The notes under the pieces were generated by a model that saw nothing but the letters and a program-made list of their open reading frames with translations, ran no database searches and was not told the origin of the DNA. From Nitrospirota bacterium (GTDB lineage Bacteria > Nitrospirota > UBA9217): a stretch of DNA of 64,000 bases. The stretch is from the NCBI GenBank assembly GCA_963749655.1, contig CAVVOB010000015.1, positions 64,001-128,000 of the forward strand, read 5' to 3'. Shown piece after piece: positions 14,556 to 36,233 of this stretch (positions within the stretch are counted from its first letter, which is position 1; every line of letters starts with the position of its first letter). The position numbers and the translations under genes were made by a program.

Positions 14556-15557
14556 TCAGGGGGCTTTCAGGTACTGAAAGACCTCGATCCTTTTATTAAT
14601 CTGGTCGGCAACGTAAATACGGTCGTTTTCGTCTATGGCGATGGCAGCAGGCAGATGGAATTGGCCCGCCCGGGGGCCGAGCCCGCCGATGAACATCAGG
14701 GTATTTCCTTCCTGGTCGAAAATCTGGAAATTGCTGAAGGCCCCATCAGTCACATAGATGTGGCCGTCGGAATCAACGGCGATCCCTTTTGGATTTGCGA
14801 ATTGCCCCGGCTGGTCCCCGACGCTCCCGAACTTTCTCAGGAACTTGCCGTCCGCCGTGAATATCTGCACTCTGAAATTACCGCTGTCGAGAACATATAC
14901 GGTTCCCGCATGATCGACCGTAATGGACAGCGGGAGATTGAATTTTCCGTCATCCCTTCCCAGGCCGCCGAAGGTAAACAGGGTTTTGCCTGCAAGGTCG
15001 AGAACCCGCACTTTGTGACTGTTCCGTTCGACTACATACAACCTTCCCAGCGAATCGTTGATGGCGACGGCCACCGGCCTGTTCTCCACGGGAAAGCTGG
15101 TTTTATAGGTGCGATTAGCGCCATATACCATAATTTTCGATAAACCCGCATCTGCAATATACACGTTGCCCTTTGCATCAGCTGCTATCGAAGCCGGACT
15201 TCGCAACCCTTCTCTGAAGCCCAGCAGGAACATCCGTTTTTCCGAGAAAGCGAAGATCATTGCGTTTTTCAAGATGAGGTCGGTAACATAGAGCTTGCCG
15301 CCCTGTGAAAAAACGCCGTATGGTCTCTCCATTGTGTCGATATAGTCCTTGCCGAAAAGCTTTTCTTTGAACGAATAGACTCTGTCGATATCGTCTTCTG
15401 AATAAATGGACTCGACGTACTTGATTCGCGGTTGATCGGGCGGCAAGGGCCAGAGCAGGTTGGTGGGCTCAACACGCCTGTTCGCGGGATTGCAGGCAAA
15501 AACAGGCAGCAACAAAAGCATTGAAACGGCAATAAGGGAGCTACGACGAAATGTCAT
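14556..15557 (-). CDS. NHL-repeat beta-propeller lipoprotein
   Basis: Lipobox VFAC, WPLPPDQPRI motif, multiple F..P.GIAVD NHL repeats. Confidence 0.85.
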   Translation of the reverse strand: MTFRRSSLIAVSMLLLLPVFACNPANRRVEPTNLLWPLPPDQPRIKYVESIYSEDDIDRVYSFKEKLFGKDYIDTMERPYGVFSQGGKLYVTDLILKNAMIFAFSEKRMFLLGFREGLRSPASIAADAKGNVYIADAGLSKIMVYGANRTYKTSFPVENRPVAVAINDSLGRLYVVERNSHKVRVLDLAGKTLFTFGGLGRDDGKFNLPLSITVDHAGTVYVLDSGNFRVQIFTADGKFLRKFGSVGDQPGQFANPKGIAVDSDGHIYVTDGAFSNFQIFDQEGNTLMFIGGLGPRAGQFHLPAAIAIDENDRIYVADQINKRIEVFQYLKAP

Positions 15558-15567
15558 CGGGAAAAAC

Positions 15568-16608
15568 TCATTTCACATATTGGAAGGTCTGCACACGGCC
15601 GTTTGTTTGATCGGCGATGTAGATACGATTTTGCTCATCAATGTAGATGCCCGCCGGCATCCAAAAATCTCCGGAAAGACTCCCTGTTCTTCCCCAAGTC
15701 AGCAGGAAAATGCCTTCCGGATCGAACACAAGGATATTATTGCTTACCGAATCGGTAACGTATAAGTGTCCGTCGGCATCCACCGCTATGCCTTTCGGCT
15801 GAATGGCATACCCGGGCATTGTACCAGAAAGACTGAAGGACTTCAAGAATTTACCCTCGGAATCGTACTCATACACGCTCCTGCGAAGGGTATCGAGTAC
15901 GAAAACGTTCCCCTTGGAATCAAGGGCGACCGCGCCGGGAAACTTGAAATCCTCGGACTTTTTCCCCGTGGCACCGATATCGAACAGATGATCGCCGTTC
16001 GTACTGAACACTTTCACCTGATGGGTGTGAGTGTCAGCGACATAGAGTCTGTTGCGAAAATTATCGACAGCGAGGCCTCCTGGTCTGGAGAGGGAGTTTA
16101 TCTGCCTGGATATGGGCCCGAGGGTGCCGCCGAGGACTAAGCTGACATTTCCATTTCTGTCAAAGCCGAATACTTTTCCCTGCTGCGCATCAGAGACAAA
16201 AACGACGCCTGCAGAGTCCACAGCGATGCCGGAAGGAGAGAGCAATTTCAGCTGACTTCCCGCGGTCGGAGCCGCATTGTTCAGGATCGTAACGTTGCGG
16301 TTCCCTCTGTCGAATATGAACACCCGGGCGGGCGATGCATCGGTCACATAAACGCGGAAAGCATCGGCGTAGACGGAATTAGGCGCCTGAAGGGTAGTAG
16401 CGCGGTCGGTGTTGTATGCAATGTCCTTGAAGCTTTCCCCGCGAAGGCTCGCTTCGTTCCGGAGGGTTTCCACATAGAGAAACGAAAGGCCTTTCTGCGC
16501 GGCTGCATCCTCTTTTCCGATGATGACGCTGCAGCCGGCAGCGCAAAGAGCGACAATGAAAAGTCCTGTGTATAAGGTTCGTGAGATCATAGGTAATTTT
16601 GCCTGCAT
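15568..16608 (-). CDS. NHL-repeat beta-propeller lipoprotein
   Basis: Lipobox AAGC and NHL repeats (PSGIAVD, PGGLAVD, PKGIAVD). Confidence 0.85.
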   Translation of the reverse strand: MQAKLPMISRTLYTGLFIVALCAAGCSVIIGKEDAAAQKGLSFLYVETLRNEASLRGESFKDIAYNTDRATTLQAPNSVYADAFRVYVTDASPARVFIFDRGNRNVTILNNAAPTAGSQLKLLSPSGIAVDSAGVVFVSDAQQGKVFGFDRNGNVSLVLGGTLGPISRQINSLSRPGGLAVDNFRNRLYVADTHTHQVKVFSTNGDHLFDIGATGKKSEDFKFPGAVALDSKGNVFVLDTLRRSVYEYDSEGKFLKSFSLSGTMPGYAIQPKGIAVDADGHLYVTDSVSNNILVFDPEGIFLLTWGRTGSLSGDFWMPAGIYIDEQNRIYIADQTNGRVQTFQYVK

Positions 16609-16659
16609 TCAAACTGGGACAATTATAGCATATATTTTCTTCCAGATGAAACCAGAAAA

Positions 16660-18549
16660 TCATTTCTTCCGATGGCAAATAGTGCACAATTCATTGCGAT
16701 TTCTGATATCGTAGGCAAACAGATCCTTGGATTCTGCGCTGTGTGGATCATGACAACTGGAACAGGTCAGGCGCCGTCCCGGACGCAGCGGATCGGATTT
16801 GAGCCTGGTAGGATGCGTGATCCCCGTCAGGAGGCCGGTGATGACATGGACACCCGATGCTTTTTCCGAGTGGCAGGTGGTGCACACATCCCACGTTGAC
16901 TTTCTGAGCCAGAAACGCTGGTTGCTGGCGTGCGGATCATGACAGAGAGTGCAGTAACCAGCCTCGGTTGGCCCGTGTTTAAAGGTTTTAGCGAGCACTT
17001 CGCCGTGGCATTTAAGACAGACTTCCTTCACGGTCAGGTTGTTTGTTGTGGCGGCATCCTGATCGAAAACCCTTGCATACTGTTTGGACCCGAGAACATA
17101 GGTTATTTTCGTCTGGGCCGGAAGCTGAGCGCCCTTTGCGTCTTTTTTTACGACATAGGAGAGGGTTTCGGAGAAATTCCCGTCCATATTTCCAAGGTCC
17201 CAAACCAGATCGGAATCCTTTGCCCTGGGTTCCTTGGCGCTTCCCTGGAAATGCCCGCTCCCCTTCAAATAATGGACACCGGAAGGAATCCTTTCTGTGA
17301 GAGTAATTTTTTCAACCCTTGGCCCCTTAGTATAGGACATACTGATGAGCACCCTTTCCCGGTCCGTGAGAAGGGGTAGGTTCCGGCTGTTCGTTATCGC
17401 AACGTCGGCAGGATATACGACTACCTCGACGCGGTTGTTGAGTTCTCTGCCCTCCTGTGTACCATTGTCGGCCTTGGGCAGTGTGTCGCCCATGCCGACC
17501 GCAGTGATGTTTCTCGCCGGCGCGATCTTCGCTTCCTCCAATAATGCCGCGACGGCCTTTGCACGTTCCGCGGACAAAGCTTCGTTACTGACGAAGCCCT
17601 TCCCTTTTTTCGGCCCATTGTCCGTATGCCCTTCAATGCGTACACGGTCTCCCGGACTCGCTTTCACGTAAGCAATAACGTCTTTCAGTATTTCCAGGGC
17701 TTTATTCCGCGAAACGAGGACCGCGCTGGACGGCATGAACAGCTCCGTGCTCGAAAGCGTGTAGAGTACCGGTTCGACCGGCTGCACGGTTTTGGCGACC
17801 CTCCAGGGATCAAAGGACAAGAATTGATATTTCACAGGGTAGATGGCCGGGTCGTGACAACCGAGACAGTTCCAGACGGCCGCGGGACCATGCACATGGA
17901 TGCCTGTCGGTATGCTGTTGTGACAGGTGAAGCAGAGAACATCTTCAGGCTTTTTATGGGCGTAATCTTCGCTCGTCGCCTCCATCCGGTGACAGCCCGA
18001 GCATTCCGCTTCGTGTTCTCGTGAATGAAAAAGAGCCTGAGTAAAACCGGCCGGCGGCGCCCCTTTGAACGACGCCTCCCGGTTATATACGCGAAGATCG
18101 CGAGTTGCGTAGGTCTTCAAGACAGTCAGGTTCTTTTCATTCTTTACCTGAATGATGAACCTGACGGTGATCGTGTTTGCCCCCGGCTGGAGTGCAAGCC
18201 CCTGGGAAGCATGCTTTCCCGTAGAGCTGTCGATGACGGGATATTCTGTTTTATTGTTTACGACGGCCTGGAAAAACGGGGTTTTCGACCAGTCGGCGGC
18301 GGGGTCGAGGACGAGATTCACCCTGCTGTTGACCAGCGAATCCGGTCTGGGATAGAGGATTTTTACAGGCGGAGCATCCGCAGCCAGAACGTATGTTTCT
18401 GCACACAGGCAAGCAAGAACCAACGGAACTATGCAAACAAATAATCTGGTCAAAAGATGCCCCTGGTCATCGTTCCCGGTCAACGATTTGAAATGAGAGA
18501 CGCTTCTTCCGTGAGAGACGGGCTCAGCGGGAGTAGGTCTTTTGTTCAT
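16660..18549 (-). CDS. Octaheme c-type cytochrome with inserted OmpA-like domain
   Basis: 8 CXXCH motifs (3 N-terminal, 5 C-terminal) flanking IEGHTDN...LSAERA...NNRVEV. Confidence 0.85.
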   Translation of the reverse strand: MNKRPTPAEPVSHGRSVSHFKSLTGNDDQGHLLTRLFVCIVPLVLACLCAETYVLAADAPPVKILYPRPDSLVNSRVNLVLDPAADWSKTPFFQAVVNNKTEYPVIDSSTGKHASQGLALQPGANTITVRFIIQVKNEKNLTVLKTYATRDLRVYNREASFKGAPPAGFTQALFHSREHEAECSGCHRMEATSEDYAHKKPEDVLCFTCHNSIPTGIHVHGPAAVWNCLGCHDPAIYPVKYQFLSFDPWRVAKTVQPVEPVLYTLSSTELFMPSSAVLVSRNKALEILKDVIAYVKASPGDRVRIEGHTDNGPKKGKGFVSNEALSAERAKAVAALLEEAKIAPARNITAVGMGDTLPKADNGTQEGRELNNRVEVVVYPADVAITNSRNLPLLTDRERVLISMSYTKGPRVEKITLTERIPSGVHYLKGSGHFQGSAKEPRAKDSDLVWDLGNMDGNFSETLSYVVKKDAKGAQLPAQTKITYVLGSKQYARVFDQDAATTNNLTVKEVCLKCHGEVLAKTFKHGPTEAGYCTLCHDPHASNQRFWLRKSTWDVCTTCHSEKASGVHVITGLLTGITHPTRLKSDPLRPGRRLTCSSCHDPHSAESKDLFAYDIRNRNELCTICHRKK

Positions 18550-19858
18550 GGCACCCCGGCGCGCATGATCCTCCGGTCTTGCTCGGGCTGTAATTCATCG
18601 GCATGAGCCAGCCGTTGAACCCCACCGTCTGCCGAACATGATGCAATGACCCGCTGTCGGCGTGGACTTCATGACAGGCCCTGCAGGTCCTCCCTTTTGC
18701 CGCCTTGTTTACATGAAAATAATGAAGATTCTTTCGCCCGTTCCTGAAAGCGGTAGCGTCGTCCGTTCGTGGCTCCTGGAAGGCCGTTTTGTCATGACAG
18801 GAGAAACAGAGCGCATACTTGCCGTCGGAATAGGACGTGTAGAAATCTGCCGGATAATAGCGCGTCAAAATGCGCCAATAGTCCGATCCATGGGGATTGT
18901 GACAGGAGGTGCAGTCCTTGTTCTGTACTGGGCCATGACTGTTCTTCTGGGTTGCAAGCCAAGTTTTCATGTCCATGATCCTGCCGCGTTCCGTATCGAA
19001 TTGTTTGTTATGGCAGCGCAGACAAAGGTCCATCTCAGGCTCGGGCAGGAGGCGTGCGTTGTCGGAGTAGTGCGGATCGTGGCAATTCAAGCACGTTTTG
19101 GCGTCGATCATGGGACCATGCTTGACTGCGGCTTTTTCCATCAGCGACGTTTCGCCCGGATGGCACTTGGAGCACAAGGCCGGGACCGGAGCCGACATCA
19201 TCGCTTTGTTCGCAGATCCGTGCGGGTTGTGGCATTGCACGCACGATTGCCGGACAGGCTGATGAGATGACTTCTTTATTTTCAGACCGTCTTCTTTGTC
19301 AGGATGGCAGGTAAAACACAGCTTATTCCCCTCCGCAATCAGTCTGTGCGGAAAATCACTTTGATGGTTGTCATGACAGCCGGAACAGTCGCCTCCGGCC
19401 ACGGGAGGGTGCATGACCTTCTGCTTCATCATGCTGTCAGGATGGCACTGGAAGCAAAGGCTGGGTACGGTGTCCTTCAGCATGCCTTTATTCGGAGAAC
19501 CGTGGGGATTATGGCACGTAGTACAGTCTTTCCCCATGATCGGAGCATGAACCGTCTTTTTCGTGTTTTTCGGCTCATGGCACATATAGCAGAGGTCTGA
19601 ATCTGATTGGACCAGGGAAATCGTCAGGTTACCCGGATGCTTCGCATTCTTTTTTGCAGGTTCCTGCGTCACCTGGTGACAAGTGGAGCATCCATCCTTG
19701 ACAGGAGCATGAACAAACTTGAATTTCGTGAATTTAGAGTGGCAGGAGCCCGAGATGCAGGATTCGGTTTGAGAGAAGGACGGAGAAACGAGCATGGTGT
19801 TCATCGTGACGATCAACAAGGAGAACAATAAAATGTCCCTTATAGGTTCTTTATTCAT
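18524..19858 (-). CDS. Multiheme c-type cytochrome (13 CXXCH plus CX4CH and CX3CH), paired-CXXCH type
   Basis: Signal peptide and H.PV...CxxCHxPH repeats. The start at 19858 has a GGGAG RBS and lies downstream of a sigma54 promoter. Confidence 0.9.
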   Translation of the reverse strand: MNKEPIRDILLFSLLIVTMNTMLVSPSFSQTESCISGSCHSKFTKFKFVHAPVKDGCSTCHQVTQEPAKKNAKHPGNLTISLVQSDSDLCYMCHEPKNTKKTVHAPIMGKDCTTCHNPHGSPNKGMLKDTVPSLCFQCHPDSMMKQKVMHPPVAGGDCSGCHDNHQSDFPHRLIAEGNKLCFTCHPDKEDGLKIKKSSHQPVRQSCVQCHNPHGSANKAMMSAPVPALCSKCHPGETSLMEKAAVKHGPMIDAKTCLNCHDPHYSDNARLLPEPEMDLCLRCHNKQFDTERGRIMDMKTWLATQKNSHGPVQNKDCTSCHNPHGSDYWRILTRYYPADFYTSYSDGKYALCFSCHDKTAFQEPRTDDATAFRNGRKNLHYFHVNKAAKGRTCRACHEVHADSGSLHHVRQTVGFNGWLMPMNYSPSKTGGSCAPGCHEQKTYSR

Positions 19859-19937
19859 ATTCGTAAAACTCCCTGTTGTTTGTAAATGATTGGCGAGATG
19901 ATGATTGATAAATATTCTTTTTATCCAAGGTAAAAAC

Positions 19938-19953
19938 TGCAAATTATGTGCCC
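19938..19953 (-). promoter_or_regulatory. Sigma54 -24/-12 promoter
   Basis: Minus strand GGGCACATAATTTGCA (GG-N10-GC), with an IHF-like AATCATAGTCTTG at 19978-19990. Confidence 0.7.
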
Positions 19954-20035
19954 GTAAAAAGAAATCAGAAATACTAGCAAGACTATGATTTTATGAAGAT
20001 AATTAATCTACTATCTAATATGAATTAACATCTTT

Positions 20036-20072
20036 TGAGCAAATATGCTCATAACAATTAATTATCGCTCTA
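20036..20072. promoter_or_regulatory. Putative enhancer (bEBP upstream activating site)
   Basis: Palindrome TGAGC-N6-GCTCA plus a CGCTCTA element, repeated at 28535-28572. Confidence 0.6.
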
Positions 20073-20248
20073 GAGGAAAAGGACCGCCGAGAAAAAAGAA
20101 TTACCCTTAATTACGTACGGCCGGCAAAAACCGCTTTTCCGGCAACGTAAAATACCAATCCCTACAATCGATCTGTAGTCCGGATCACGGGAAAAAAGGG
20201 GCGCGTACGCTCAGTGCGGGGAAAACGGACAAGGGGGGACCAAGCCCA

Positions 20249-21010
20249 TTATTCAAGATCGGGATGACAGCGCTTACAATCCTGAATCGGGAAAGCAACA
20301 GTCAGATGGCAGGCTCCGCAGAACATTCCTTTATTGATGTAGTCCATGCGGAAATGCTTTGTGCCTTTTTTCTGGATATTAAAGATATCAGGATGACAGT
20401 CTGCGCAATCAAGCCACTCTGTATGCTTCAGATGAGGAAAAACGGCTCTGGTCTTTATCATGTTCCATTCCGGTTCAAGACGCAGGTTTTTGTCGAAGGG
20501 AATCGGCTCATAATTATCCGTAAGGCTCTGATGCGGTTTTATCATTTTTTTCCTGAGAGCCTTCACCCAGTTCACTTGATCGCCGTATCTCGCCCGGGGA
20601 AGGTTGTCCAGTTCCGAGTACCTGGCGTCTGTGGATCCGATGTTTCCGGTATGGCAGAGCAGACAGGTCTCTTCGGTGACTGCGAACGCAATGGTTCCGT
20701 TATGGCAGGCGCCGCAATACTCGCCCTTTTTGATCTTTGCGTCGGTGATGTCGGTTGCATTCGCTTTCATTGCGAAATTAAGCTCAAAGTGACAGACACG
20801 GCACGTATAATACCGCCGATGGACCCAATGGGAAAAAGACACTGGCGGATGCGTGCTGCTGGCGGTCAATCTGCTGATGAGGACATTGCCGTACCGTGCA
20901 GGCGGAGGGAGTTGCGGAAGGTTAAAAACGTCGTCGAACTGGGTGCCGGCAGCCATTGCGGCATGACTCACGGCACCCAGCAGAACGAAGAAAAAAACTA
21001 CTACTCGCAT
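20249..21010 (-). CDS. Hexaheme cytochrome with two c7-type triheme domains
   Basis: Signal peptide, FSHWVHR..YTCRVCH, 6 CXXCH motifs. Confidence 0.88.
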   Translation of the reverse strand: MRVVVFFFVLLGAVSHAAMAAGTQFDDVFNLPQLPPPARYGNVLISRLTASSTHPPVSFSHWVHRRYYTCRVCHFELNFAMKANATDITDAKIKKGEYCGACHNGTIAFAVTEETCLLCHTGNIGSTDARYSELDNLPRARYGDQVNWVKALRKKMIKPHQSLTDNYEPIPFDKNLRLEPEWNMIKTRAVFPHLKHTEWLDCADCHPDIFNIQKKGTKHFRMDYINKGMFCGACHLTVAFPIQDCKRCHPDLE

Positions 21011-21062
21011 AAATTACCTGGCTTTGCCATCTGCCAATCGTGAAGTTCCTGCATGAAACCGA

Positions 21063-21848
21063 CTAATAGACTTCTTTCAAATGACAAAGTTGACAATCAT
21101 AGAACGGGAACGCAACCTTTGCATGACAGGCGCCGCAATACTTTCCGGCGAAGATATCCTGCATGTTGTATTTCGTCGATCCCTTTTTTGCTCCGAAAAT
21201 TTCAGGATGACACAATTCGCAGCCGTTGATTTCGGCGTGGATCTTGTGAGAAAAGATGATGTCCGGCATACCCAGGATCGTTGACTTGATGTCAAAGTCC
21301 TTCGGATTGGGGATGGCCTGTCGCTTGATGGAAATCCCCTCGACCAGGTCCTTGAGCTTGATCTGCCCGGCGGCCTCGGCTTTCATCCAGTCAACCCTGT
21401 TTCCAAACCGAGCCTGAGGGTAGTTCTTTAAATATTCGTTGAAATCATATTTGAACTTTACGTCCTTGCCGTAGGAATGGCAGCGGTCGCAGTTCTGCGT
21501 CTCGGACACAACCTTGTCGCGCGAGGTAGGACCGAAGGCCTCTTTCCCGTTGTGGCAGGAGCCGCAGTAAAGATTGTTCTTGTTGTCAGCTTCCCTGATG
21601 TCGCTGCCGCCGGCCTCCATGGCGAAACCAAGGTCCACGTGGCAGACCCTGCAGGTATACTTCGATCGGTGGAGCCAATGTTTGAACACTACCGGAGCTA
21701 TATTGCTTTTCTCCGAATAGTTGTTTATGACTACGTTACCGAACTCCTCGGGTCGCGGCATTCTTTTCTTGGTGCCGAAGTTGGCTGCAACCGCAAGGGA
21801 TGCAAACACCAGCACAAACACGGCAATGATCAGAACTTTGAATTTCAT
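21063..21848 (-). CDS. Hexaheme cytochrome with two c7-type triheme domains
   Basis: Signal peptide, FKHWLHR..YTCRVCH, 6 CXXCH motifs. Paralog of 20249..21010. Confidence 0.88.
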   Translation of the reverse strand: MKFKVLIIAVFVLVFASLAVAANFGTKKRMPRPEEFGNVVINNYSEKSNIAPVVFKHWLHRSKYTCRVCHVDLGFAMEAGGSDIREADNKNNLYCGSCHNGKEAFGPTSRDKVVSETQNCDRCHSYGKDVKFKYDFNEYLKNYPQARFGNRVDWMKAEAAGQIKLKDLVEGISIKRQAIPNPKDFDIKSTILGMPDIIFSHKIHAEINGCELCHPEIFGAKKGSTKYNMQDIFAGKYCGACHAKVAFPFYDCQLCHLKEVY

Positions 21849-21936
21849 AATACCTTCTCCTTCCTCAGTTTATCATCTGCTGCAAGGCGTCCTTATTGAC
21901 GCGAACTCACTCGGACCATGATGGACCACCGGTGCT

Positions 21937-23390
21937 CTACCGGTGGCAGCTCAGGCACAAATCCGCCGGTTTCTCCGCTTTATAGCGGAAGAGATCCGAC
22001 CAGTCGGAGCTGTGCGGATTATGACAGCTGACGCAGGCCATCTTTCTCCCCGGCCGCCTCGGATCGTCCGCGCTGTCGAGAGGATGTCCGGCCTGTGATC
22101 CCTTTGCCTTGAGCCCCGGCAGCGTCGTTTTCGGGTGGGGATTGTTAAAGATGCCTTTGTGGCACTTCCTGCATGATTCATTTCCTTCGAACTTCGACAA
22201 ATTTTTGTACGGTGATGTGTGGTTGCCGTGGCAATCGTAGCACTTCCCGTCAGCGACAGGCTTATGCACGTTCTTGCCGGTGAATCCCTCGGTATTGTGG
22301 CAGGTGTAGCACAGGTCAGGCACTTTTCCGCTCAGGAGCTTGGGATTCTGGCTCTGATGCACGGTGTGGCATCCATTGCACATGCCGATCTTGAAGGGAC
22401 CGTGTTTTTCCTTGCCCCCCAGCTCCTCATTCATATGGCAATCAAAGCAGAGGGCCGGTGTCGATTTCGTCAGCAAATATTTCGACTTTGCAACATGAGC
22501 ATTGTGGCACGTCGTGCACCTCCCGCCCGCTACCGGCTTGTGTCCGTACTTCGCGCCTGTAAAGGATTTCTTATCATGGCACTTGTAGCACAGGTCCGGC
22601 TGCTTTGCCTGCAGAAGCTTCTCTGTTTTTGATTGATGCGAGGTATGACAGGACGAGGCAGTTGCCTTCCTCAACGGGAGCGTGCACGATCCCCCCGGTG
22701 TAGGCGCTCTTGTCGTGGCAGGAGTAGCAGAGGCCGGGTGAATCCGCTACAAGCAGATTTCTTGCGTTCTCGGAGTGCGGGTTATGGCAAGAATTGCATT
22801 TGCCGGAGATTACCGGTTGATGCTGCATCGCGCCTCTTGTCGGCAACGCTCGCCTTATCATGACACCGGAAACAAAGTTCAGGCATGCTGAAGGTCAGCA
22901 GTTTTTCGCTGTTGTCCGAACTGTGGGCCTCATGACAAAACATGCAGAGACCGGCGGCAGTGGGGAAATGAACGTTTTTCTTGGCAGCGATCTTCTTATC
23001 GTGGCACTTGTAGCACAGGTCCGGCATGGCCGTAGTCAGCAGCTTGACGTTGTTGGATGAATGCGGGTTGTGGCAGGATGTGCATTTGCTCGTGCCGATC
23101 GGCTTGTGCTGATACTGCTTTAAAAAAAGACCTCTGCTGTGGCAGTCATAACACAGATCAGGCTGATCGGCCTTAAGGCTCAAAGTGGCCTTGTCCTTGC
23201 TGGCATGAGGATTTTCGTGGCAGGCGCTGCACCCCTTCTTCATTGCTGCATGGAGCACCTTCCCCTTGCTCATTGCCTCATGACATTTATTGCAGTCCTG
23301 GTCCTGCGCCGCGGCCGAAGGACGCGCAAAAACGAGAAGAGATGCACAGAAGCATGCCATACAGAATGCGAGTAGGTTCTTACGTTTCAT
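21937..23390 (-). CDS. Large multiheme cytochrome (about 19 hemes; two frameshifts near 22830 and 22660)
   Basis: Three overlapping ORFs continue one paired-CXXCH repeat (7+2+10 motifs, one spanning a frameshift). Signal peptide present. Confidence 0.82.
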
Positions 23391-23453
23391 GTCCCTTTCC
23401 AGTCTTGCCCGAAGAAGCTCAGAATAGGATCGCTGCTCCAGCCACTGCGGAGT

Positions 23454-24751
23454 TTACTTGATCTGCCGTATAAATTGTTTGAGTTCGGAGTCATCGGGGG
23501 CGATCTTGAGAGCCCGTTCCCAGGTATCTTTCGCCCTGTCCTTCTTCCCGATTGCGTAATACCCCGATCCGAGCCTCTTCCAGGCAAGGATATTCTTCGG
23601 CTGCAGTTCAATGACGATGGTGCACTCCTGGATGGCCAGGTCGTAACGCCCGTCGTAAATATGATTCAATGCGGCGAAGAGGTATTGATCAACGATATTC
23701 ATGTCGCCCACCGGGGCTTCCATGGTCGTCAGGATGGAGACATACTTGAGCTCAAGGAATCCCTTGACCGCAATGGTCAGCGACGTCGGGTTCAGTTGAA
23801 ACGCATACCAGGCTGCGGCCATGGAGGCTTTGCGGTTGCCGTCGACGGCGATGTAGTGCGCCATCGCCGTTCTCATCATGTCGCCTGCCAGGTTCGCGTC
23901 GTCAATGCGAAGCGCCACTTTGGCGACATCTTCGAGCCGCGAGATCATGGTCTTGACGTCGATGTCGGTCGGGTTGTCGGCAAGGATCTTGCTGTAATAG
24001 TCGCGCGCGGTTATGTAGTCGCCCCGTTCATAGGCCTGTTTCGCATCGGCGTAGATGGTCTTCATTTTCTCACGAACTGCCGACGCTATGTACCGGGAAG
24101 CGGCTTCCTGCTTGTCGTCGATATCGAGGATCTTCTTCCATTCGGCAATCGCCAGATCGTACTGTTTGTCCTTCATGTAGGCGTCGGCCTGGTCGTAGTG
24201 TTTCTTGGTCCGGACATCGACGACATTGCTTTTTGCCTTGTTCAGGAGGCTCAGGGCTTTACGGTCGTAAGGTCTTACCGCGAGGATCTTCTCCAACTCG
24301 TTGACCGCGGACGATAGTCGTTTTCCTGGATGAACTTCTCGGCCTGCTCGTGCATCTCGTTGGTGGTCTTATCGGTAATGAGATTTTTCGTTGTGTCTAT
24401 CAGGGTCGCGAACCTGCGGTCGTCGGGGTTCATCTTCAGCAGCTTGTCCCACGTCTCGATCGCCTTGGCGTAATCCTCGTTCAGGAACGCGTCGGTCGCT
24501 TCCTTGCAGAACGGCTCCATCGACTGCTGTCTGGCCAGCGCCAGATAGCGGGATGCGGTCTTGTCGAAAGGATCGATGGAGAGGATCTCGTTCAACAGAG
24601 GCGCCGCCTGCTCGAATTTCCCCTCTCGGAGGAGAGCGACGACGTCCTTCTTGAGCTGATCGATCCGCTCGACCTGCTTCGGCGTTACGGCTTCAGCGCC
24701 GGCTGCAATGCAGAACAGAAGCAACAGAATAAGAGCAAAAGACTTTTTCAC
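23454..24751 (-). CDS. Secreted TPR-repeat protein (frameshift near 24310)
   Basis: Signal peptide AEA. TPR helices run across ORFs 24275..24751 and 23454..24296. Confidence 0.8.
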
Positions 24752-25417
24752 CCTTTGACTCCTCTGACCACGGTGATTTCGATGCGCCGGTTTTTTGCCC
24801 GTCCGGCGTCATCTTCGTTTGAAGAGGCGGGCCGATACTCGCCGAAACCGTGGGCTACCAGCCGCTCGGGGGGGATCCCCTTGTTGATGAAAAAATAAAT
24901 GACGCTGAAGGCCCGCGCCGACGACAGTTCCCAGTTCGACTGGTACTGCTGGGTGTGAATGGGAACATTGTCGGTGTGACCTTCTGCAATGATGCTGTTG
25001 CCCATGGGCTTCAGCTGACTCTCCAGATAGTCCAGGAAAAACAGGATGTCCTTCTTGAGGTCGGCGCTGCCGCTGTCGAAAAGGGCGAAGGCTCTCCATG
25101 TTGATCTCGATGTTGTGCGGGGTCATCTTGATGCGGATTTTGTCTTCCAATCCGTTTTTCTTGATGAAGTCCCGTACATTCTGGGCCAGCGCGATCTCCA
25201 GTTTCATCTGCTTGACCCGCGGATCGTTCGGGTTGGTCGATGCAAGATCGGAAAGCGCTGTTTCATATTCCACGGAATTGACCGAGGAAAAGGCGTAGAA
25301 CATGATGAAGAGAATGACGAGGGTGAGCATCAGGGTGCTGTAGGGCAGCATCCAGAGCTCGGTCTCCTCCATCTGTTCTTCGGTATAATGTACGAATTTC
25401 TGAAGAACCGATATCAC
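24748..25417 (-). CDS. MotB-like stator B subunit lacking the conserved Asp (frameshift near 25090)
   Basis: WMLPYSTLMLTL TM helix. OmpA-like EGHTDN, SNWELSSARA, GRAKNRRIEI. Confidence 0.82.
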
Positions 25418-26084
25418 AGCGTGCTCCTGGGCTGACGCACGATCGTCAGCTCGATTCGCCTGTTCCGTGCGCGATGTTCTTCCGAATCATTCGGAAACGC
25501 CGGATGGAATTCGCCGTAGCCCGCGGCAACAAGCTGTTTCGGATCCATTCCTGATGAGGTGAAAAAGTTGACGACGCCGACTGCCCTGGCAATGGATAAT
25601 TCCCAGTTGGACCGGTAGGCTCCCCCGCGCACGGGTGTCGGGTCAGTATGGCCTTCGATGATAATGTCGTTCGGAAAGGGCTCGAACATACCCTACCAGA
25701 CTCTCCAGGACGTTGACTGTTCCGGGGTTCAGCTTGGCGCTGCCTATGGAAAAGAACGATTCGGGATTCAAAGCTATCTTAACGGACTTCTCGCCGACCT
25801 CTATGGTCGCTTTGCCGGCCAGCTTGCCCTCGGTCACCGCCTGCTGGAGCATGCGGATGGCTTCTTCTTCCCGCTGCAGCTTTGCCTGACGCTCGAGTTC
25901 CACCTGGTCGCGCGCCGATCTGTTGATGACCGTACTTTCCATGCCCGAAACGACCATCTGCTTATCTGCTGCGGTCATGCGGGTCATGGCAAAGAGCATG
26001 AGGAAAGAAAAGCATGAGGTTCGTGGTAATATCGGAGAAGATAATGAGCCAGATATTCCCTATTTCTTTTCGTTTTTCCGTCAT
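25414..26084 (-). CDS. motB: MotB-like stator B subunit with conserved Asp (frameshifts near 26005 and 25690)
   Basis: ATG at 26084 reads MTEKRKEIGNIWLIIFSDITTNLMLFF. The C-terminus has EGHTD, SNWELSIARA, RARNRRIEL. Confidence 0.8.
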
Positions 26085-26124
26085 GTCGTCGTCAGCCTTA
26101 CAGTTCTTCCTCGGGTCTCAACGG

Positions 26125-26896
26125 TTATTTCTGCCGCATATGAGCCATGATGAATGCAGTCAGTTTCTTCCGCAGAATGAGCGGCACATCGCCCTGCTGG
26201 ATCGACATGATGCCTTCAGCGATCATCTCTTTGTTGATGATGTCGCGTTCGCTGTGGTCCGTGAGCTTCGTGGCGATCGGGATGAAGACATTCGCGGAAA
26301 AGATCCCGTAAAAGGTCGCCGTGACGGCGTTCGACATGGCGGCGCCCATGCTCGAGGGATTGGACAGGTTGCGCAGCATGTCCACGATGCCCATGAGTGT
26401 GCCGAGCAGTCCGAAAATGGGGGCGACCGTGGCCATCGTCCTGAATGCTCCGGAGACCTTCTGCTGGTTATGACGCGTGTAGAATATCTCCCGGCCGAGG
26501 TTGTCCTTGATCACGTCATGATCGAGGCCGTCCACGAGCATCTGCACTCCATGAATGAGAAATTTGTCGGTCTGGTTGGGCAGTTCCGACGGAAGACTCT
26601 CGATGCCCTCCCGCCGTGCCTTTCTCGGCAAGAGTGGAAAGATGATCGATCATGTTTTCCATGTCCTTGTCGCTGTGCTTGCTCGGGAACAGGAGGATGC
26701 GAAGCGACGGGACGATTTCCTTGATCACCGGCCAGGGATAGGCGATCAGGGTCGCGCTGAACGTACCCCCGTAAACGATGATCAGGGCCAGGGGATTGAA
26801 AAGCATATGCAGGATGTTGCCTGCAGCGAGAACATACAGGATCGTCAGCAGTATCGCGACGAGCCCGATTACGGTCATTTTATCGATTTTTTCCAT
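26125..26896 (-). CDS. motA: MotA/PomA-type stator A subunit (frameshift near 26625)
   Basis: PLALIIVYGGT, ARREG, APIFGLLGTLMG, ATFYG, EGIMSIQQG. Confidence 0.88.
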
Positions 26897-26898
26897 GG

Positions 26899-28330
26899 TT
26901 AGCTGTTTTCAACCTCCACGAGTCCTTCGCTGATCAGCCGCCTTACCAGAACCATCACATTCTGCTTCTCCCGGCGCAGCCGCGTCGCTGAGAGAGGACG
27001 ACTGAGGTCCATTTCTTCCTTGAGCCGTTCCGATGCTCCGGCGCTCAGGGAGGTAATGACTTTCTGCTGGATCTCGACAGGAAGGGATTTCAAAACCTGG
27101 GCAAAGAGCGTGGCGTCGATGTTCCGGTACAGCGTCTGAACGCCCTGCACGGGCAGATCCCGGATGATGTTCTCCAGGCTCTTCACTTTCTGTTTCAGGC
27201 GCGTCGCGGTCTGGGCGTCTTTCGTCTCGAGTGTTTTTACGATCTTGTCGCGGACGTCGTCGCTCGTCATATCGAGCAGCGTGACCAGCTTTGCTCTCGC
27301 CTCCTACGACGTACGCCAGCTTGCTTTTGACCATCTCTTCGAGGGCCGCGACCTTTTCCGTGTTGATTTCTTCCTTGCCGAGCGCGAGTGCAACTTCGAC
27401 CTGCCGCTCCTTCGGGAAAAGTTCAAGGAGCCTCATGGCGATCGCGGGGTCGAGATAATTCGCCACAACTGCTATATCCTGGGGGGTCTTGTCCTTCATC
27501 AGGAACGCCAGACTCTGGATGTCACGCTCCCGGATGAAGGAAAACGGAAGAGACTGGTCGGCAGCCGGCGCACCTGCTCCGGAGCGGTCCGCTTTGCCGG
27601 AAAGGACCTCCCGCTCGTAGCTGGACGTACGTTCGACCGTATTGACATTAACGGAAGTCGAAGATGCCCCCCCGCGAATGTGATTCCAGTCGATGTCCTT
27701 GAGCGCCGGGGCGATTTTTTTCAACGGGTCCATGAAGAACATCCCGACGGCGACGAGCATGAAGCCGCCGATGATCGTCAGGAGAAGCCAGAAGAGGTTC
27801 GGCGGGAAAAACAGGGATGACCAGTAAAAACCCTTGGATTCGAAGTCTACCTTCTTTATGTTGATCTGGTCGCCGCGATTCTGGTTGTAGCCGATGACGT
27901 TCTTTGCGATGTCCTCGATAAGAGTCGCGATCGACCCCGGAACGCTTTTGTCGATCCATATCGACAGGACGATCTTGTTGACCTTGTACTTGCTGCTCCC
28001 GGCGCCGAACAGCATTTCCGATTGCCCCGCGCCGAATTCCTTCTTTTCCGGAACTCCGGGAAGTACGAGGGCGTTCGTTTTTTTCTTTTCAAGAAGCTTA
28101 TCGCTGTCCCCCCGTGCCGACGCCAGCTCGGCATTCACGAAAATGACGACCCGGTCGGTGCCGGTGATTTCCATGATAACCTGCTTCAGCTTTCTTTCGA
28201 GCTGGTTCTCAAGGGAAATCTTGAGTGCATAGTCATCGTTGACCTCGGCGTGGGCCCGATGAACGGTTGCAGCAAATGTCAATGACAGCAGCAGAAGGCA
28301 GAGCACGAAGCGATTCAGTTTATGAACCAT
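26899..28330 (-). CDS. FliF ring-building (RBM3) domain - TM - FliG middle/C-terminal fusion protein (frameshift near 27291)
   Basis: Signal peptide. The FliF C-like part has LENQLERKL..G...VFVNAEL, LPGVP, KIVLSIWID, IGYNQNRGDQINI. After one TM come the FliG-like KTPQDIAVVANYLDP, VGG linker and LSAGASERLKEEM...VRRLISEG. Confidence 0.8.
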
Positions 28331-28445
28331 TTTTCCCGATCCCCTATGTCTATAAGTTTTGGATTAAATTGATGCGGCCTTTGCAGCAACGAAAAGAATC
28401 ATGCCGTTCTGTTCAGGCACATTTTTTTCATAACCTGCTAATGAA

Positions 28446-28461
28446 TGCAAATAGCATACCC
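28446..28461 (-). promoter_or_regulatory. Sigma54 -24/-12 promoter of the motor operon
   Basis: Minus strand GGGTATGCTATTTGCA (GG-N10-GC), with an IHF-like AATCGGTTTATTA at 28486-28498. Confidence 0.65.
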
Positions 28462-28534
28462 TTCACAAGGGGGAAAATTCACAGTTAATAAACCGATTTT
28501 ATTGGTAATTATGGAATGTACTACTACGACTCAA

Positions 28535-28572
28535 TGAGCGTATATGCTCAAACATTGTTGATTAGCGCTCTA
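28535..28572. promoter_or_regulatory. Putative enhancer (bEBP upstream activating site), second copy
   Basis: tgagcgtatatgctca...cgctcta, matching 20036-20072. Confidence 0.6.
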
Positions 28573-28753
28573 TCACTGCCGTCATATGTTCGATAGCGCG
28601 ACACAATAACATATTGATTCAACATTTGTAAAGTGGAATCTTGTCTTTTAATTGAATTGCGTGTATGATACCCCCCGCAGATTTTTACGGGACCATTCAC
28701 CAAAAAAAATTCCCAAAATATTGGGTGCTGAGACCCGAAAAAAGGACGGTACT

Positions 28754-30397
28754 ATGCGTAACGTAGCGGTTGGAATATTGGTTTGTTTCATGATGGTAAA
28801 CATTGTCGGTACAGAAGCGTCGGCCGCCAAAAAAGACTCCAAAAAAACGACAAAACAAACGACCGCAACGCCTGCACAAACCGGGCAGGAGGCGGCCGCA
28901 AAGCCGGAAAAGTCGGAACCGATCAATGCACGGTACACCGACAAAAGCGACGGCACGATCCTGGACAAGAATACCGGGCTTGTCTGGTTGAAAGACGCAA
29001 ATACCGGAAGTCTCCCTTTGCCGTACGAGGGGGCAAAACAGTACCTCCAGGAAATGAACAGCGGCAGGAAGCCCAATTTCGGCTTTACCGACTGGCGCCT
29101 GCCTACCATCAATGAAATTGAGACCCTCGTCGAAAAAACCAGGTTCTATCCGGCGCTTCCTGCGGGCCATCCCTTTACGAACGTGCAGAATAATTATTAC
29201 TGGTCTTCTTCAACGGGCAGAGATGTCATTGACTATGTATGGATCGTCGACATCGCCTCGGGCGAAATGACCATGGACTATGTGTCGGCATGCAGCTACA
29301 AATTCCTCTGGCCGGTGAGAAGCGGCTGGATGCCGACTACTGCGAAAGCCAGCACGGTCATGACCGGAGGTTTGAACGAATTCGGACAGCTCGGCGACGG
29401 TTCAACGGGAGACCGGGACGCCCTTCTGCCCGTCAGCGGGCTTGACAATGTCGTCCGGGTCTCCGCAGGACTTGAACATGCCGTAGCGCTCAAATCCGAC
29501 GGCTCGGTGTGGGCGTGGGGAAGAAACAACGGCGGCCAGCTCGGAAACGGCTCCAGTGAAGACAGCCGCGTTCCTGTCGCAGTCAAGGACCTCTGGAAGA
29601 TCACCGATGTGGCGGCCGGCATGTTCCATACGGTCGCACTCGCTTCAGACGGCGCCGTCTGGACCTGGGGAAGGAACTCCTACGGCCAGCTCGGAAACGG
29701 CTCGAACACCGACTCCAACACTCCCGTAAAGGTTAAGGGCCTGTCGGGCGTCGTCAAAATCTCTGCAGGGATGTATCATACCGTCGCGGTCAAATCGGAT
29801 GGAACCGTCTGGACCTGGGGGAGAAATGTCTACGGTCAGCTCGGGAACGGCTCGAATAAGGACGAAAACAGCCCGGTGCAGGCTTCCGGACTTTCCGGCG
29901 TGATCAACGCAGCAGCCGGTCTGCATCATACCATTGCCCTGAAATCGGATAAAACCGTCTGGGCATGGGGCTGGAACATCAACGGGATGCTGGGGGACGG
30001 GACAAGCACTGACCAGATGAAGCCGGTGAAGGTGCTGGGACTTTCCGACATCACAGACATCGAGGCCGGGCTCCATCATTCTATCGCACTCAAGACGGAC
30101 GGGACGGTCTGGGCATGGGGCGGCAACGAATACAGCCAGCTCGGGAACAAAACGGCGAATGGGGCCACTGCCGTGAAAATCGAGGGGTTGGGGAACATCA
30201 AGAAAGTTTCCGCAGGGACCTACCATTCCATTGCGGTGATGTCCGATGGGACGATCTGGGTGTGGGGCAAGGACCTGAAAACACAGCCCGCGAAGCCCTA
30301 TCCCGTGAGGATCTGGGATGTGGCCGGGATCAACGATGTGGCCGCAGGAAGGTTTTATACGGTCGTGCTGAGCGGGGGCAAAACAACGGCGCCATGA
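28754..30397 (+). CDS. Secreted DUF1566 (Lcl-type) plus RCC1-repeat beta-propeller protein
   Basis: Signal peptide. DGTILDKNTGLVW...DWRLPTINE..YWSSS, then about 7 repeats of ALKSDGTVWAWGxNxxGQLG. Confidence 0.82.
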   Translation: MRNVAVGILVCFMMVNIVGTEASAAKKDSKKTTKQTTATPAQTGQEAAAKPEKSEPINARYTDKSDGTILDKNTGLVWLKDANTGSLPLPYEGAKQYLQEMNSGRKPNFGFTDWRLPTINEIETLVEKTRFYPALPAGHPFTNVQNNYYWSSSTGRDVIDYVWIVDIASGEMTMDYVSACSYKFLWPVRSGWMPTTAKASTVMTGGLNEFGQLGDGSTGDRDALLPVSGLDNVVRVSAGLEHAVALKSDGSVWAWGRNNGGQLGNGSSEDSRVPVAVKDLWKITDVAAGMFHTVALASDGAVWTWGRNSYGQLGNGSNTDSNTPVKVKGLSGVVKISAGMYHTVAVKSDGTVWTWGRNVYGQLGNGSNKDENSPVQASGLSGVINAAAGLHHTIALKSDKTVWAWGWNINGMLGDGTSTDQMKPVKVLGLSDITDIEAGLHHSIALKTDGTVWAWGGNEYSQLGNKTANGATAVKIEGLGNIKKVSAGTYHSIAVMSDGTIWVWGKDLKTQPAKPYPVRIWDVAGINDVAAGRFYTVVLSGGKTTAP

Positions 30398-30975: not shown

Positions 30976-32355
30976 TCAAAGGATCCCAAATCGTTTCATT
31001 CTCCGTCTGAACGCGTCTCGGGGCATCTTCAGCAGCTGGGCTGCTTTCGTCTGGTTGCCGCTTGTCATATCGAGCGCTTTTCGTACCAGTGCGTTTTCGA
31101 CATCCTCGAGGGCCAACCCCGTCTCGGGAATGACGAATCCATCAAGGGAAACAGGGGTGCTCATCGATGATACTTCAGGAGAACGCCCTTCGAGAATTTC
31201 GGGAGAAAGATGTTCCGGTCGGAGCTCGTCGTCGATCTCCAGGATCATCGCCCGTTCGATGACGTTCTTCAACTCCCTCACATTCCCGGGCCAGGAATAG
31301 GTCAGAAGGATCTGTTCCGCCTCCTGCGATATGCCGCGCACATGCTTGTGACACTCCTGGTTGAAATACTCGATGAAATGGTGCGCCAGAAGCAGAATAT
31401 CCCGCCCGCGATCCCTGAGCGGCGGAAGGTTGATCGGCACGACCTGAAGGCGGTAGTAGAGGTCTTTCCGGAAAGTTCCGTCGGTCATGGCCTTTGAAAG
31501 CTCATGGTTCGTAGCCGACACCATCCGGACATCTACTTTGATGTCCTTGACCCCTCCGACCCGCTTAAAGGTCTTCTCCTCCAGCAGCCGGAGCAGTTTG
31601 GCCTGCATGCTCAGGTGCATGTCGCCGATCTCGTCGAGGAATACCGTTCCGCCGTCGGCCAGCTCGAAAAGTCCCTTCTTTGCGTTTTTCGCGTCGGTGA
31701 AAGCGCCTTTTTCGTGGCCCATCAGCTCGCTCTCGAGGAGGTTCACGGGTAAAGCCGCGCAGTTGATCGCCATGAAAGGCTGGTCGCCCCGGGCGCTGCT
31801 GAAATGAATAGCCTTGGCCACCAGCTCCTTGCCCGTTCCGCTTTCTCCCTGGATAAGGACCGTCGTAGCATCGCTCTTTGCTATCTTCAGGATAAGGTTC
31901 TTGATCCGCACCATTTCTTCACATTCGCCGAATATGGCATCTACCCTGCTCCTGCATTCCTGGCGAAGCTGCTTCACCTGAATGCGGAGTGAGCCGGCCT
32001 CCAGAGCCTTCTTTATGACAAAGGTGATCTCTTCCAGGTTAAAGGGCTTGCTCAGATAGTCATAGGCCCCGAGCTTCATGGCCTTGACCGCCGTTTCCAC
32101 CATGCCGTAGGCGGTGATCATGATCACCATGAGACCGCGTTCCTGGACCTTCAAGGTGCTCAGGAGCTCCAGGCCGGTCATTTCCGGAAGACGGTTATCG
32201 AGAAGCACCAGATCAGGCTGGTCCTCGTTGATCAGTTCCAGGCCTTTTTCCGCCGACTCAGCGGTCATGACCTCGTACCCTTCCTTTACCAGGTGCTGTT
32301 CCAGGGTCCACCGGATCAGTTTCTCGTCGTCAATAACCAGGATTTTATGCGCCAT
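30976..32355 (-). CDS. Sigma54-dependent response regulator (NtrC/AtoC family)
   Basis: Receiver domain, GESGTGKE, GAFTDA, WPGNVREL, C-terminal HTH. Confidence 0.93.
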   Translation of the reverse strand: MAHKILVIDDEKLIRWTLEQHLVKEGYEVMTAESAEKGLELINEDQPDLVLLDNRLPEMTGLELLSTLKVQERGLMVIMITAYGMVETAVKAMKLGAYDYLSKPFNLEEITFVIKKALEAGSLRIQVKQLRQECRSRVDAIFGECEEMVRIKNLILKIAKSDATTVLIQGESGTGKELVAKAIHFSSARGDQPFMAINCAALPVNLLESELMGHEKGAFTDAKNAKKGLFELADGGTVFLDEIGDMHLSMQAKLLRLLEEKTFKRVGGVKDIKVDVRMVSATNHELSKAMTDGTFRKDLYYRLQVVPINLPPLRDRGRDILLLAHHFIEYFNQECHKHVRGISQEAEQILLTYSWPGNVRELKNVIERAMILEIDDELRPEHLSPEILEGRSPEVSSMSTPVSLDGFVIPETGLALEDVENALVRKALDMTSGNQTKAAQLLKMPRDAFRRRMKRFGIL

Positions 32356-35764: not shown

Positions 35765-36233
35765 TCTCGATCTCCTGTATCTCATACTCCACGGTCTTTG
35801 CAGGCGTCTTGATCGTGACCACATCGCCCACCTTGTGAGTGATGAGCGCCTTGCCTACAGGAGACTGGACCGATATTTTCCCCTTCTTGAGGTCGGCTTC
35901 CTCCTGCCCCACGAGCGTATATTTCTTGATATCGCCGGAGTCCGTGTCGGCGAGCGTGACCGTCGAGCCGAACACGACCTTTTCGTTCGTGAGCTTGGAG
36001 ACGTCGATGATCTGGGCGTGCGAAAGCTTGTTCTCGAGCTCGCGTTTCTTGGCGTCGAGATGCCCCTGCCGCTCCTTGGCGGCGTGGTACTCGGCGTTCT
36101 CGGAGAGATCGCCGTGCGCCCGGGCCTCTTCGATGTCCCTGATGTTCTTGGGGCGCTCGATTTTCATGATGCGATCGAGCTCCTGCTTGAGCTTGGCGTA
36201 GCCCTCTTTCGTCATGGGAATCTTCTGCGTCAT
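35751..36233 (-). CDS. greA: Transcription elongation factor GreA
   Basis: [29 protein letters not shown]. Confidence 0.95.

Follow-up and report, generated by a model that had tools for sequence, protein, structure and literature searches.

To our knowledge, all known uses of the torque interface between FliG and MotA are flagellar. The MS-ring of the flagellum is built of ~33-34 FliF subunits. Non-flagellar, ion-driven motors of the 5:2 type that move surface proteins are represented by GldLM (gliding and the type IX secretion system of Bacteroidota) and AglRQS (gliding of Myxococcus). These motors belong to TolQ/ExbB-like or GldL lineages, AglQ and AglS set a precedent for two different B-type subunits, and we know of no FliG-like rotor or RBM3 ring in either. 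Here we analysed a gene cluster in a 64,000-nucleotide stretch of DNA from a Nitrospirota bacterium (GTDB lineage UBA9217; assembly GCA_963749655.1, contig CAVVOB010000015.1, positions 64,001 to 128,000; the window). The cluster encodes a natural fusion of FliF and FliG parts, a MotA, two MotB paralogs (MotB1 and MotB2) and a secreted tetratricopeptide repeat (TPR) protein, followed by multiheme cytochromes. The initial annotation, made from the sequence alone, had proposed a self-contained rotor and stator set for non-flagellar work, with the secretion, assembly or movement of a cytochrome conduit among the possible roles. Our analysis indicates that the cluster probably encodes a stand-alone, flagellum-independent, ion-driven rotor-stator machine made from flagellar parts, which in this lineage would be co-regulated with cytochromes.

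FliF-FliG fusions have been made in the laboratory. According to the available text of two reports, such Vibrio and Salmonella fusions form MS-rings (PMC10941966, PMC11481574), so that a single-chain FliF-FliG can build a ring. The engineered proteins joined full-length FliF to full-length FliG inside a complete flagellum, whereas the protein described here is natural, truncated and stand-alone. The available text of a preprint describes numerous motAB, flbD and fliG homologues, of unclear role, in free-living Elusimicrobiota that lack flagellar structural genes (10.1101/2022.07.08.499144). These motAB and fliG homologues are very likely the same genes as those of the motor described here. The preprint also reports magnetosome genes, in a cluster, for an Elusimicrobiota genome that it names '1499'. 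That text, supplements aside, contains no account of the RBM3 fusion, the five-gene core, the paired MotBs, the Nitrospirota members or the cytochrome link. A second preprint states, in its available part, that rotor proteins in filament-less genomes raise the possibility of another function (10.1101/2024.12.05.626484). Our literature search, which had supplementary gene lists outside its scope, turned up only passing mentions, none of which described a natural FliF-FliG fusion that works outside a flagellum. Within that scope no characterised system with this arrangement came up, and the initial annotation had not recognised one either.

The fusion protein is ordered as a signal or first transmembrane (TM) helix, a periplasmic FliF-RBM3-like domain with an LPGVP insert, a second TM helix, a linker, FliG_M and FliG_C. 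Pfam searches with an intact ortholog matched YscJ_FliF_C (5.9e-6), FliG_M (2.5e-8) and FliG_C (2.9e-15). No Pfam match to FliG_N was found in the fusion, where a TM helix and the RBM3 domain stand in its place. The AlphaFold2 model (mean predicted local distance difference test score, pLDDT, of 70.9) showed an N-terminal hydrophobic helix, an alpha-beta-beta-alpha-beta domain (residues 34-161), a TM helix (175-210), a disordered linker and the FliG helices (263-462). An insert of ~38 residues (75-112, pLDDT <50) interrupts the RBM3-like domain and holds the LPGVP motif, of which L90-P91-G92-V93 were invariant in 18 sequences and P91-G92 in 40.

Structural comparison showed that residues 31-164 of the fusion could be superimposed well with residues 230-438 of Salmonella FliF, the RBM3/collar region (Z of 14.4, root mean square deviation of 2.0-2.4 Å over 99 residues; VIA-align, with which Foldseek agreed). 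Other ring-building folds gave Z values of 8.6-8.9 for the periplasmic domain (PrgK 8.9, SpoIIIAG 8.8, and EscJ). In the FliG part, residues 256-468 matched residues 117-335 (M and C) of Helicobacter pylori FliG with a Z of 15.8, and residues 379-467 matched the FliG_C chain of a MotAB-FliG complex with a Z of 13.2 and a root mean square deviation of 1.7 Å. A complex prediction with four copies of residues 31-172, made with no controls, scored 0.01 against a mark of 0.42 and is evidence neither way. The Gly-Gly hinge (G338 and G339) was invariant in 18 sequences. Furthermore, the torque-helix pattern R-L-(K/R)-(Q/E)-E-(M/I/L), with an upstream lysine, was kept in most of 29 fusions from both phyla that carry the family, Nitrospirota and Elusimicrobiota. 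We presume that these residues correspond to the torque-helix positions of E. coli FliG, the mapping being made by motif and not by alignment with the E. coli protein. In the available text of PMC12505986, the E. coli torque-helix residues are R281, D288 and D289.

The stator proteins are of the flagellar type. Residues 17-263 of MotA aligned to residues 2-247 of a solved MotA structure with an E value of 1.4e-41, and all 10 matches in the Protein Data Bank were MotA or PomA (1e-41 to 1e-23). MotA has the four TM helices and the cytoplasmic torque domain of the flagellar protein. The best NCBIfam matches were likewise MotA, PomA and MotP; TolQ reached only 7e-4, and a Tol or Ton system was rejected on this basis. 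The basic pair at the R90 position (RR, RK or KK) was kept. Eight residues on, the column equivalent to E98 of E. coli MotA is Glu in the solved structure and non-acidic in the motor described here; an acidic residue was conserved two to three positions past it. Both MotBs keep the MotB_plug and OmpA domains. The channel Asp was present in all 26 sequences grouped as MotB1, whereas the corresponding site of MotB2 is Thr in all 14 Nitrospirota sequences; among the Elusimicrobiota it is Ser or Asn in four sequences and Asp in the others. A B-subunit without this Asp presumably could not conduct ions alone. The Asp-less MotB2 strictly co-occurs with MotB1, which suggests that the two form a heterodimer inside one MotA pentamer. 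The TPR protein yielded only generic or designed TPR matches among sequences of the Protein Data Bank.

Compared with the flagellum, the RBM3 fold, the second TM helix, the FliG_M and FliG_C folds, the Gly-Gly hinge and the charged torque helix of the rotor are alike, as are a flagellar-type MotA and a MotB with plug, channel Asp and OmpA-like anchor in the stator. However, FliF and FliG are one polypeptide here, RBM1, RBM2, FliG_N and the C-terminal peptide of FliF have no counterpart, and the collar appears to be reduced to ~38 residues. In addition, there are two MotB paralogs, one of them Asp-less, and a dedicated TPR gene; no FliM/N, export gate, rod, hook or filament was found in the genome, and carriers are mostly flagellum-less. 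The motor differs from the gliding motors by its flagellar-type MotA and FliG torque domain, while the Elusimicrobiota version resembles them in adjoining large surface proteins, some of which have a CHU_C sorting domain. The Zorya defence system (ZorAB) also has MotB-like proteins with a peptidoglycan anchor, and ZorB models matched both MotBs at 1e-23 to 1e-9. Zorya was rejected with PADLOC, as no ZorA match was found, the fusion, TPR and RCC1 proteins had no match, the ZorB matches were generic and no effector genes were seen.

We searched the whole genome, which is 86.6% complete, with profiles of the export gate (PF00771), flagellin (PF00669), the N-terminal part of FliF with RBM1 and RBM2 (PF01514), FliM/N (PF01052) and rod proteins (PF00460). 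None of them had a match, in the fusion or elsewhere, and no separate flagellar regulon was seen with these profiles. Among 401 Nitrospirota genomes, 17 carried a full-length fusion (E values of 1e-223 to 4e-77, with bimodal scores), and 213 had only an ordinary FliG of ~330 residues (~1e-20 to 1e-32). Fourteen of the 17 carriers belong to the family of the window, and none was found among 14 other genomes of its genus. FlhA was absent in 14 carriers, including one assembled as a single contig (G256; 96% complete by marker count), and present in three. In a sample of 251 Elusimicrobiota genomes, whose completeness was not given, 84 had full-length homologs, often two to five each, with sizes of ~480-520, 640-700 or more residues. 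Only six of the 251 had FlhA, three of them carriers, leaving 81 of the 84 carriers without it. FliMN_C (PF01052) and rod proteins were found in none of the five carriers tested. These data support the earlier proposal on two points: the homologs do not lie in flagellar clusters, and the rotor and stator set is self-contained and conserved outside any flagellar regulon. Two flagellated genomes of the same genus (G001 and G002) keep the regulator-kinase-pyrD-carB synteny that flanks the cluster, and the fusion gene is absent from them.

A single-query protein search returned 86 clusters of ~470 residues, the named ones being Nitrospirota and several labelled 'flagellar motor switch protein FliG', and an alignment-based search returned the same 86 clusters with no wider reach. 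When the search was made exhaustively with a profile, 306 clusters (50% identity) passed E <= 1e-30, and the best 150 of these were nearly all full-length. Twenty cluster representatives that were looked up came from Nitrospirota, 'bacterium BMS3Abin07' and Elusimicrobiota only. Two further carriers emerged when named genomes were scanned, 'Bacterium BMS3Bbin05' and a metagenome-assembled genome of Elusimicrobia with a 550-residue fusion homolog (L079). In a quick maximum-likelihood tree of 42 FliG M+C regions, midpoint-drawn and with one long branch misplaced, 28 of 29 fusions stood apart from 13 ordinary Nitrospirota FliGs (Shimodaira-Hasegawa-like approximate likelihood ratio support, SH-aLRT, of 89). 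The Nitrospirota fusions formed one group (94) nested among the Elusimicrobiota type-1 fusions (97). As leads, the ESM Atlas has look-alikes with FliG_C and FliG_M on 480-680 residues, and the phyla in which these were most frequent are Cloacimonadota, Bdellovibrionota, Bacteroidota and Thermodesulfobacteriota. The range of the family, or of analogous FliG proteins anchored in the membrane, may extend beyond Nitrospirota and Elusimicrobiota.

The gene order fusion-motA-motB1-motB2-TPR was found in all 15 Nitrospirota-type loci that reach these genes. In the Elusimicrobiota type-1 loci that were fetched, the fusion gene was followed by motA and two motB-like genes in 10 of 10, and the TPR gene came next in nine. 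Their neighbours encode FecR-domain proteins, large CarboxypepD_reg/fn3 proteins and 640-residue proteins without assignment, and FecR-domain and extracytoplasmic function (ECF) sigma genes adjoin some Elusimicrobiota loci. In one type-1 locus (L094), an open reading frame (ORF) with four heme motifs lies 5.9 kb upstream of the core. Type-2 fusions of Elusimicrobiota (L104, L105 and L107) have 650-685 residues and a C-terminal TPR domain; a gene for a TPR protein of 550-570 residues precedes them, and proteins of 1,081-1,174 residues and 787-residue fn3/CHU_C proteins follow. In L107, two copies of the fusion gene lie with two motA-motB pairs inside 18 kb.

In the window, positions 14556-28330 of the minus strand comprise two gene runs, one with the motor and cytochromes and one with cytochrome, OmpA and NHL genes (Table 1). 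The ORF list, together with Pfam searches on 19 fragments, bore out the genes that the initial annotation had named in this region, and its heme counts also held. For the 19-heme cytochrome, 18 CxxCH motifs were present over the three fragments in the window and 19 in the intact ortholog, which barely passed as a DmsE-family cytochrome (TIGR03508, 192.8 bits against a cut-off of 192.2). The heme motifs of the 15-motif cytochrome comprise 13 CxxCH, one Cx3CH and one Cx4CH. A porin (MtrB-like barrel) was not among the Pfam matches of the cluster, and no search aimed at porins was made. In a related genome that is 100% complete (G020), the motor operon is intact, with eight genes separated by overlaps or by gaps of <=38 nt; it encodes the fusion (471 residues), MotA, MotB1 (225), MotB2 (222), the TPR protein (431), the 19-heme cytochrome and two hexaheme cytochromes. 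The divergent Lcl_C/RCC1 gene lies upstream in all loci of the window's family that reach it, and also in G256 and in L075, a distant Nitrospirota-type locus with a fusion identity of only 44%. An NtrC-type regulator and a kinase with a heme motif adjoin the operon in those loci of the family that reach them.

Table 1. Motor genes, cytochrome genes, regulators and promoter elements in the window
Feature	Position	Strand	Remarks	Frame breaks
Fusion gene, rotor	26899..28330	-	YscJ_FliF_C 2.4e-5, FliG_M 6.9e-8, FliG_C 1.3e-15	~27289
motA, flagellar stator type	26125..26896	-	MotA_N + MotA_ExbB 2e-24	~26624
motB1	25414..26087	-	Plug, TM with channel Asp, OmpA-like peptidoglycan-binding domain	~26002, ~25689
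motB2, paralog	24748..25417	-	MotB_plug + OmpA; PYSTLM, Thr at the channel-Asp site	~25089
TPR protein, secreted, fifth core gene	23454..24751	-	431 aa in intact ortholog	~24313, net -1
19-heme periplasmic cytochrome	21937..23390	-	Paired CXXCH, DmsE/GSU2203-like	~22834, ~22655
Hexaheme cytochrome 1	21063..21848	-	6 CxxCH, two c7-type triheme domains, TIGR04257	Intact
Hexaheme cytochrome 2, c7-type	20249..21010	-	6 CxxCH; final gene of motor operon	Intact
Cytochrome with 15 heme motifs	ORF 18524-19942	-	MtrC/OmcA-like domains; probable ATG 19858	
OmpA-domain octaheme cytochrome	16660..18549	-	OmpA + 8 CxxCH	
Two NHL-repeat beta-propeller proteins	15568-16608, 14556-15557	-	Pfam NHL; lipoprotein-like signal peptides	
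Lcl_C (lectin-like) + RCC1 beta-propeller protein, secreted	28652..30397	+	Pfam; divergent	
Sigma-54-dependent response regulator	30976-32355	-	Next to motor operon	
Sensor kinase	~32389-33849	-	One CxxCH motif	
Sigma-54-type promoter of fusion gene	28445..28460	-	GG-N10-GC with TTGCA, GGTATGCTATTTGCAT; 115-130 nt upstream of fusion start codon	
35-nt dyad	28536..28570	-	GAGCG.TAAT ... GAGCATAT..GCTC; 75 nt upstream of fusion promoter	
Second dyad copy, 34-35 nt	20037..20070	-	84 nt upstream of second sigma-54 promoter	
Sigma-54-type promoter of second cytochrome operon	19939..19953	-	GGCACATAATTTGC; upstream of 15-motif cytochrome gene	

Both operons are preceded by a sigma-54-type promoter and a dyad, which is likely an enhancer-binding site. 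The dyad pattern had only two matches in the 4.27-Mb genome, one before each operon. With a strict pattern, promoter and dyad were found together upstream of the fusion gene in five of 15 loci from four genera, and upstream of the orthologous cytochrome gene the promoter was found in seven of eight loci and the dyad in six. A scan of the whole window for the sigma-54 consensus gave 34 matches against 57.7 expected, which is below chance, and we used only the two sites paired with the dyad. Scans for sigma-70 promoters and terminators found nothing above shuffled sequences. In the kinase beside this regulator gene, the N-terminal sensor part carries one CxxCH, both in the window (32389-33849) and in G020 (L009, 14792-16282), and the protein may be a heme-based redox sensor. 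From these elements we infer that the sigma-54 regulator and the heme-bearing kinase control the dyad sites and would switch both operons on together.

Eight frame breaks interrupt the motor operon when it is compared by tblastn and blastn with the intact orthologs of G020 and of a second genome, G022. Seven of them are a single extra base in the window relative to both orthologs, at sites with no long homopolymer; the eighth, in the TPR gene, is a net loss of one base. No nonsense codons were seen. Metagenome contigs 95-99% identical to the window lacked the extra base at 27295, 26619, 26007 and 25683, which are all four of the break sites covered; the contig over the break in the fusion gene was 98% identical. 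These contigs were assembled from short reads of three metagenome runs from three studies (shares of 0.05-0.09) and were used for indel sites only. The broken fragments were 64-90% identical to the G020 proteins, the same range as for intact orthologs elsewhere. A further extra base relative to both orthologs, at the junction of the fusion gene and motA (26897), is common to the closest metagenome contigs and looks like natural variation and not an error. Outside the motor cluster, a frame break at ~37850 divides carB (36230-39540, minus strand) into two ORFs that overlap (36230-37858 and 37654-39540), a sign of assembly indels beyond the motor cluster. We read the eight breaks as assembly indel errors and not as decay, because the orthologs are intact, the contigs lack the extra base at the covered sites and carB is also broken. 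Decay, which the initial annotation had named as a possible refutation, is not indicated by these observations. Frameshift-like ORF overlaps were also counted over the whole genome (712 junctions), but this count recovered only one of the eight known breaks and was dropped as too insensitive. Split genes in and around the same cluster were also seen in two other assemblies of few contigs: the RCC1, 13-heme cytochrome and OmpA-octaheme genes in G231 (L053), and the fusion and TPR genes in G243 (L060), where two MotA matches also overlap.

We propose the following model. The fusion, which joins FliF RBM3 and the second membrane helix to the M and C torque domains of FliG, would assemble into a membrane ring that exposes FliG to the cytoplasm and a small S-ring-like face to the periplasm, and that lacks an export gate, a rod, FliM and FliN. 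Stators anchored to peptidoglycan and driven by the proton-motive force would turn this ring by pushing on its conserved, charged torque helix. They would most likely consist of MotA5 around a pair of MotB1 and MotB2, with the ion-binding Asp in MotB1 only. The secreted TPR protein would be a periplasmic scaffold or coupling part. The output would be an envelope or surface process and not swimming, and our best guess is that surface or periplasmic proteins are moved or positioned in the manner of gliding motors. In this Nitrospirota lineage, the heme kinase and the sigma-54 regulator would co-induce the motor and cytochrome operons and so tie the motor to electron transfer in the periplasm or outside the cell.

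Several observations weigh against this model. It is from homology that we deduce ring formation and rotation, as well as the heterodimer of MotB1 and MotB2 and the output. The FliF collar insert of ~110 residues appears reduced to ~38 low-confidence residues in the fusion, and the E98 column of MotA reads Q, A or S in Nitrospirota and other non-acidic residues in Elusimicrobiota. The NCBIfam equivalog cut-offs for FliG, FliF, MotA and MotB were not reached (74.9 bits against 226.7 for FliG, TIGR00207, on the fusion; 187.1 against 340 for the best MotA model; 143.5-155.8 against 283 for the best MotB models). In addition, the column of FliG_M that we take to be the FliM-binding EHPQR motif is degenerate (RTPQ, KTAQ, ERPE and similar), which accords with the absence of FliM/N. 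The EHPQR motif is named in the available text of PMC6290876. The frame breaks cluster in one 6.4-kb stretch (21940-28330); the near-identical contigs come from related strains, not provably this one, and four of the eight sites (25089, 24313, 22834 and 22655) were covered by no contig. The apparently reduced collar and the non-acidic E98 equivalent would suit MotAB-like units that act as energisers like TolQR/ExbBD and pass on the proton-motive force as conformational work, with the membrane-anchored FliG-like protein as a static dock, an adaptor or a sensor of stator activity and no large rotating ring. The lack of an axial structure, FliM and FliN fits this alternative as well, and the FecR and ECF sigma neighbours recall TonB-dependent signalling. 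However, no other fold fits the periplasmic domain nearly as well as the ring-forming RBM3 of FliF. The hinge of FliG and the charges of its torque helix are conserved between phyla, MotA belongs to the flagellar type, and both MotBs have the plug and peptidoglycan-binding domain typical of anchored stators. We consider the energiser alternative unlikely. Still less probable is a decaying relic, in which the flagellum was lost and the rotor and stator genes are pseudogenes with eight real frameshifts. The clustering of the breaks, with none in the other ortholog-bearing genes of 12000-34000, is consistent with decay, as are the lack of other flagellar genes in the genome and the flagellated relatives of the same genus without the fusion. 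Yet the orthologs are intact in many genomes, and the family occurs mainly in flagellum-less genomes of two phyla and is therefore no leftover of a recent flagellum loss. Decay also agrees poorly with seven single-base insertions free of nonsense codons, fragments without extra divergence, near-identical contigs without the extra base at every covered site and the split of the housekeeping gene carB.

The link to cytochromes, which the initial annotation had taken as part of the system, stood in part. In 10 of the 12 loci from the family of the window, and in L075 as well, the TPR gene is followed by the genes for the 19-heme and both hexaheme cytochromes. The points against the link are that they do not follow it in G231, G243, G256 and G273 (the family has two loci without them) and that multiheme genes are downstream of the core in none of the 10 Elusimicrobiota type-1 loci. 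Because of these absences, we regard the five-gene motor core as the conserved unit and the cytochromes as a lineage-specific, co-regulated addition in Nitrospirota. The same absences, and the large fn3, CarboxypepD_reg and CHU_C surface proteins beside the Elusimicrobiota motors, would also fit cytochromes that are mere neighbours, their genes having been inserted in one lineage, with the motor serving a general role in the envelope or in surface motility unrelated to electron transfer. This alternative deserves serious weight, but we hold it to be somewhat less than evenly probable. In the family of the window the three cytochrome genes are part of the operon, whose intact ortholog has no gap above 38 nt, and the arrangement persists at 44% fusion identity. 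Moreover, the motor and second cytochrome operons share the same rare dyad and sigma-54 promoter next to the heme-bearing kinase.

With the rotor-stator machine as the favoured reading, the question of rotor proteins without filaments now has a defined object, namely a five-gene core of ~300 clusters at 50% identity in two phyla, mostly in flagellum-less genomes. Annotators should be aware that the label 'flagellar motor switch protein FliG' in Nitrospirota and Elusimicrobiota does not imply flagella. If the motor works, it would bear on the minimal parts list of a rotor, on how 5:2 stators tolerate a pair of B-subunits with a single Asp, and on movement, or the handling of surface proteins and electron conduits, in uncultured bacteria of groundwater and sediment. 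A bolder proposal, which we put forward tentatively and think somewhat less than evenly probable as a whole, is a new class of rotary machine, with a natural single-chain MS-ring/FliG rotor and heteromeric MotA5-MotB1-MotB2 stators holding one Asp, which would power a surface or periplasmic process free of any flagellum. If true, the FliG-MotA torque interface would have its first non-flagellar use here, and the machine could also serve as a living model of a minimal rotor or of one that preceded the flagellum. The process so powered would be a gliding-like movement of adhesins in the Elusimicrobiota and, in the Nitrospirota described here, the redox-controlled deployment or movement of a multiheme electron-transfer apparatus.

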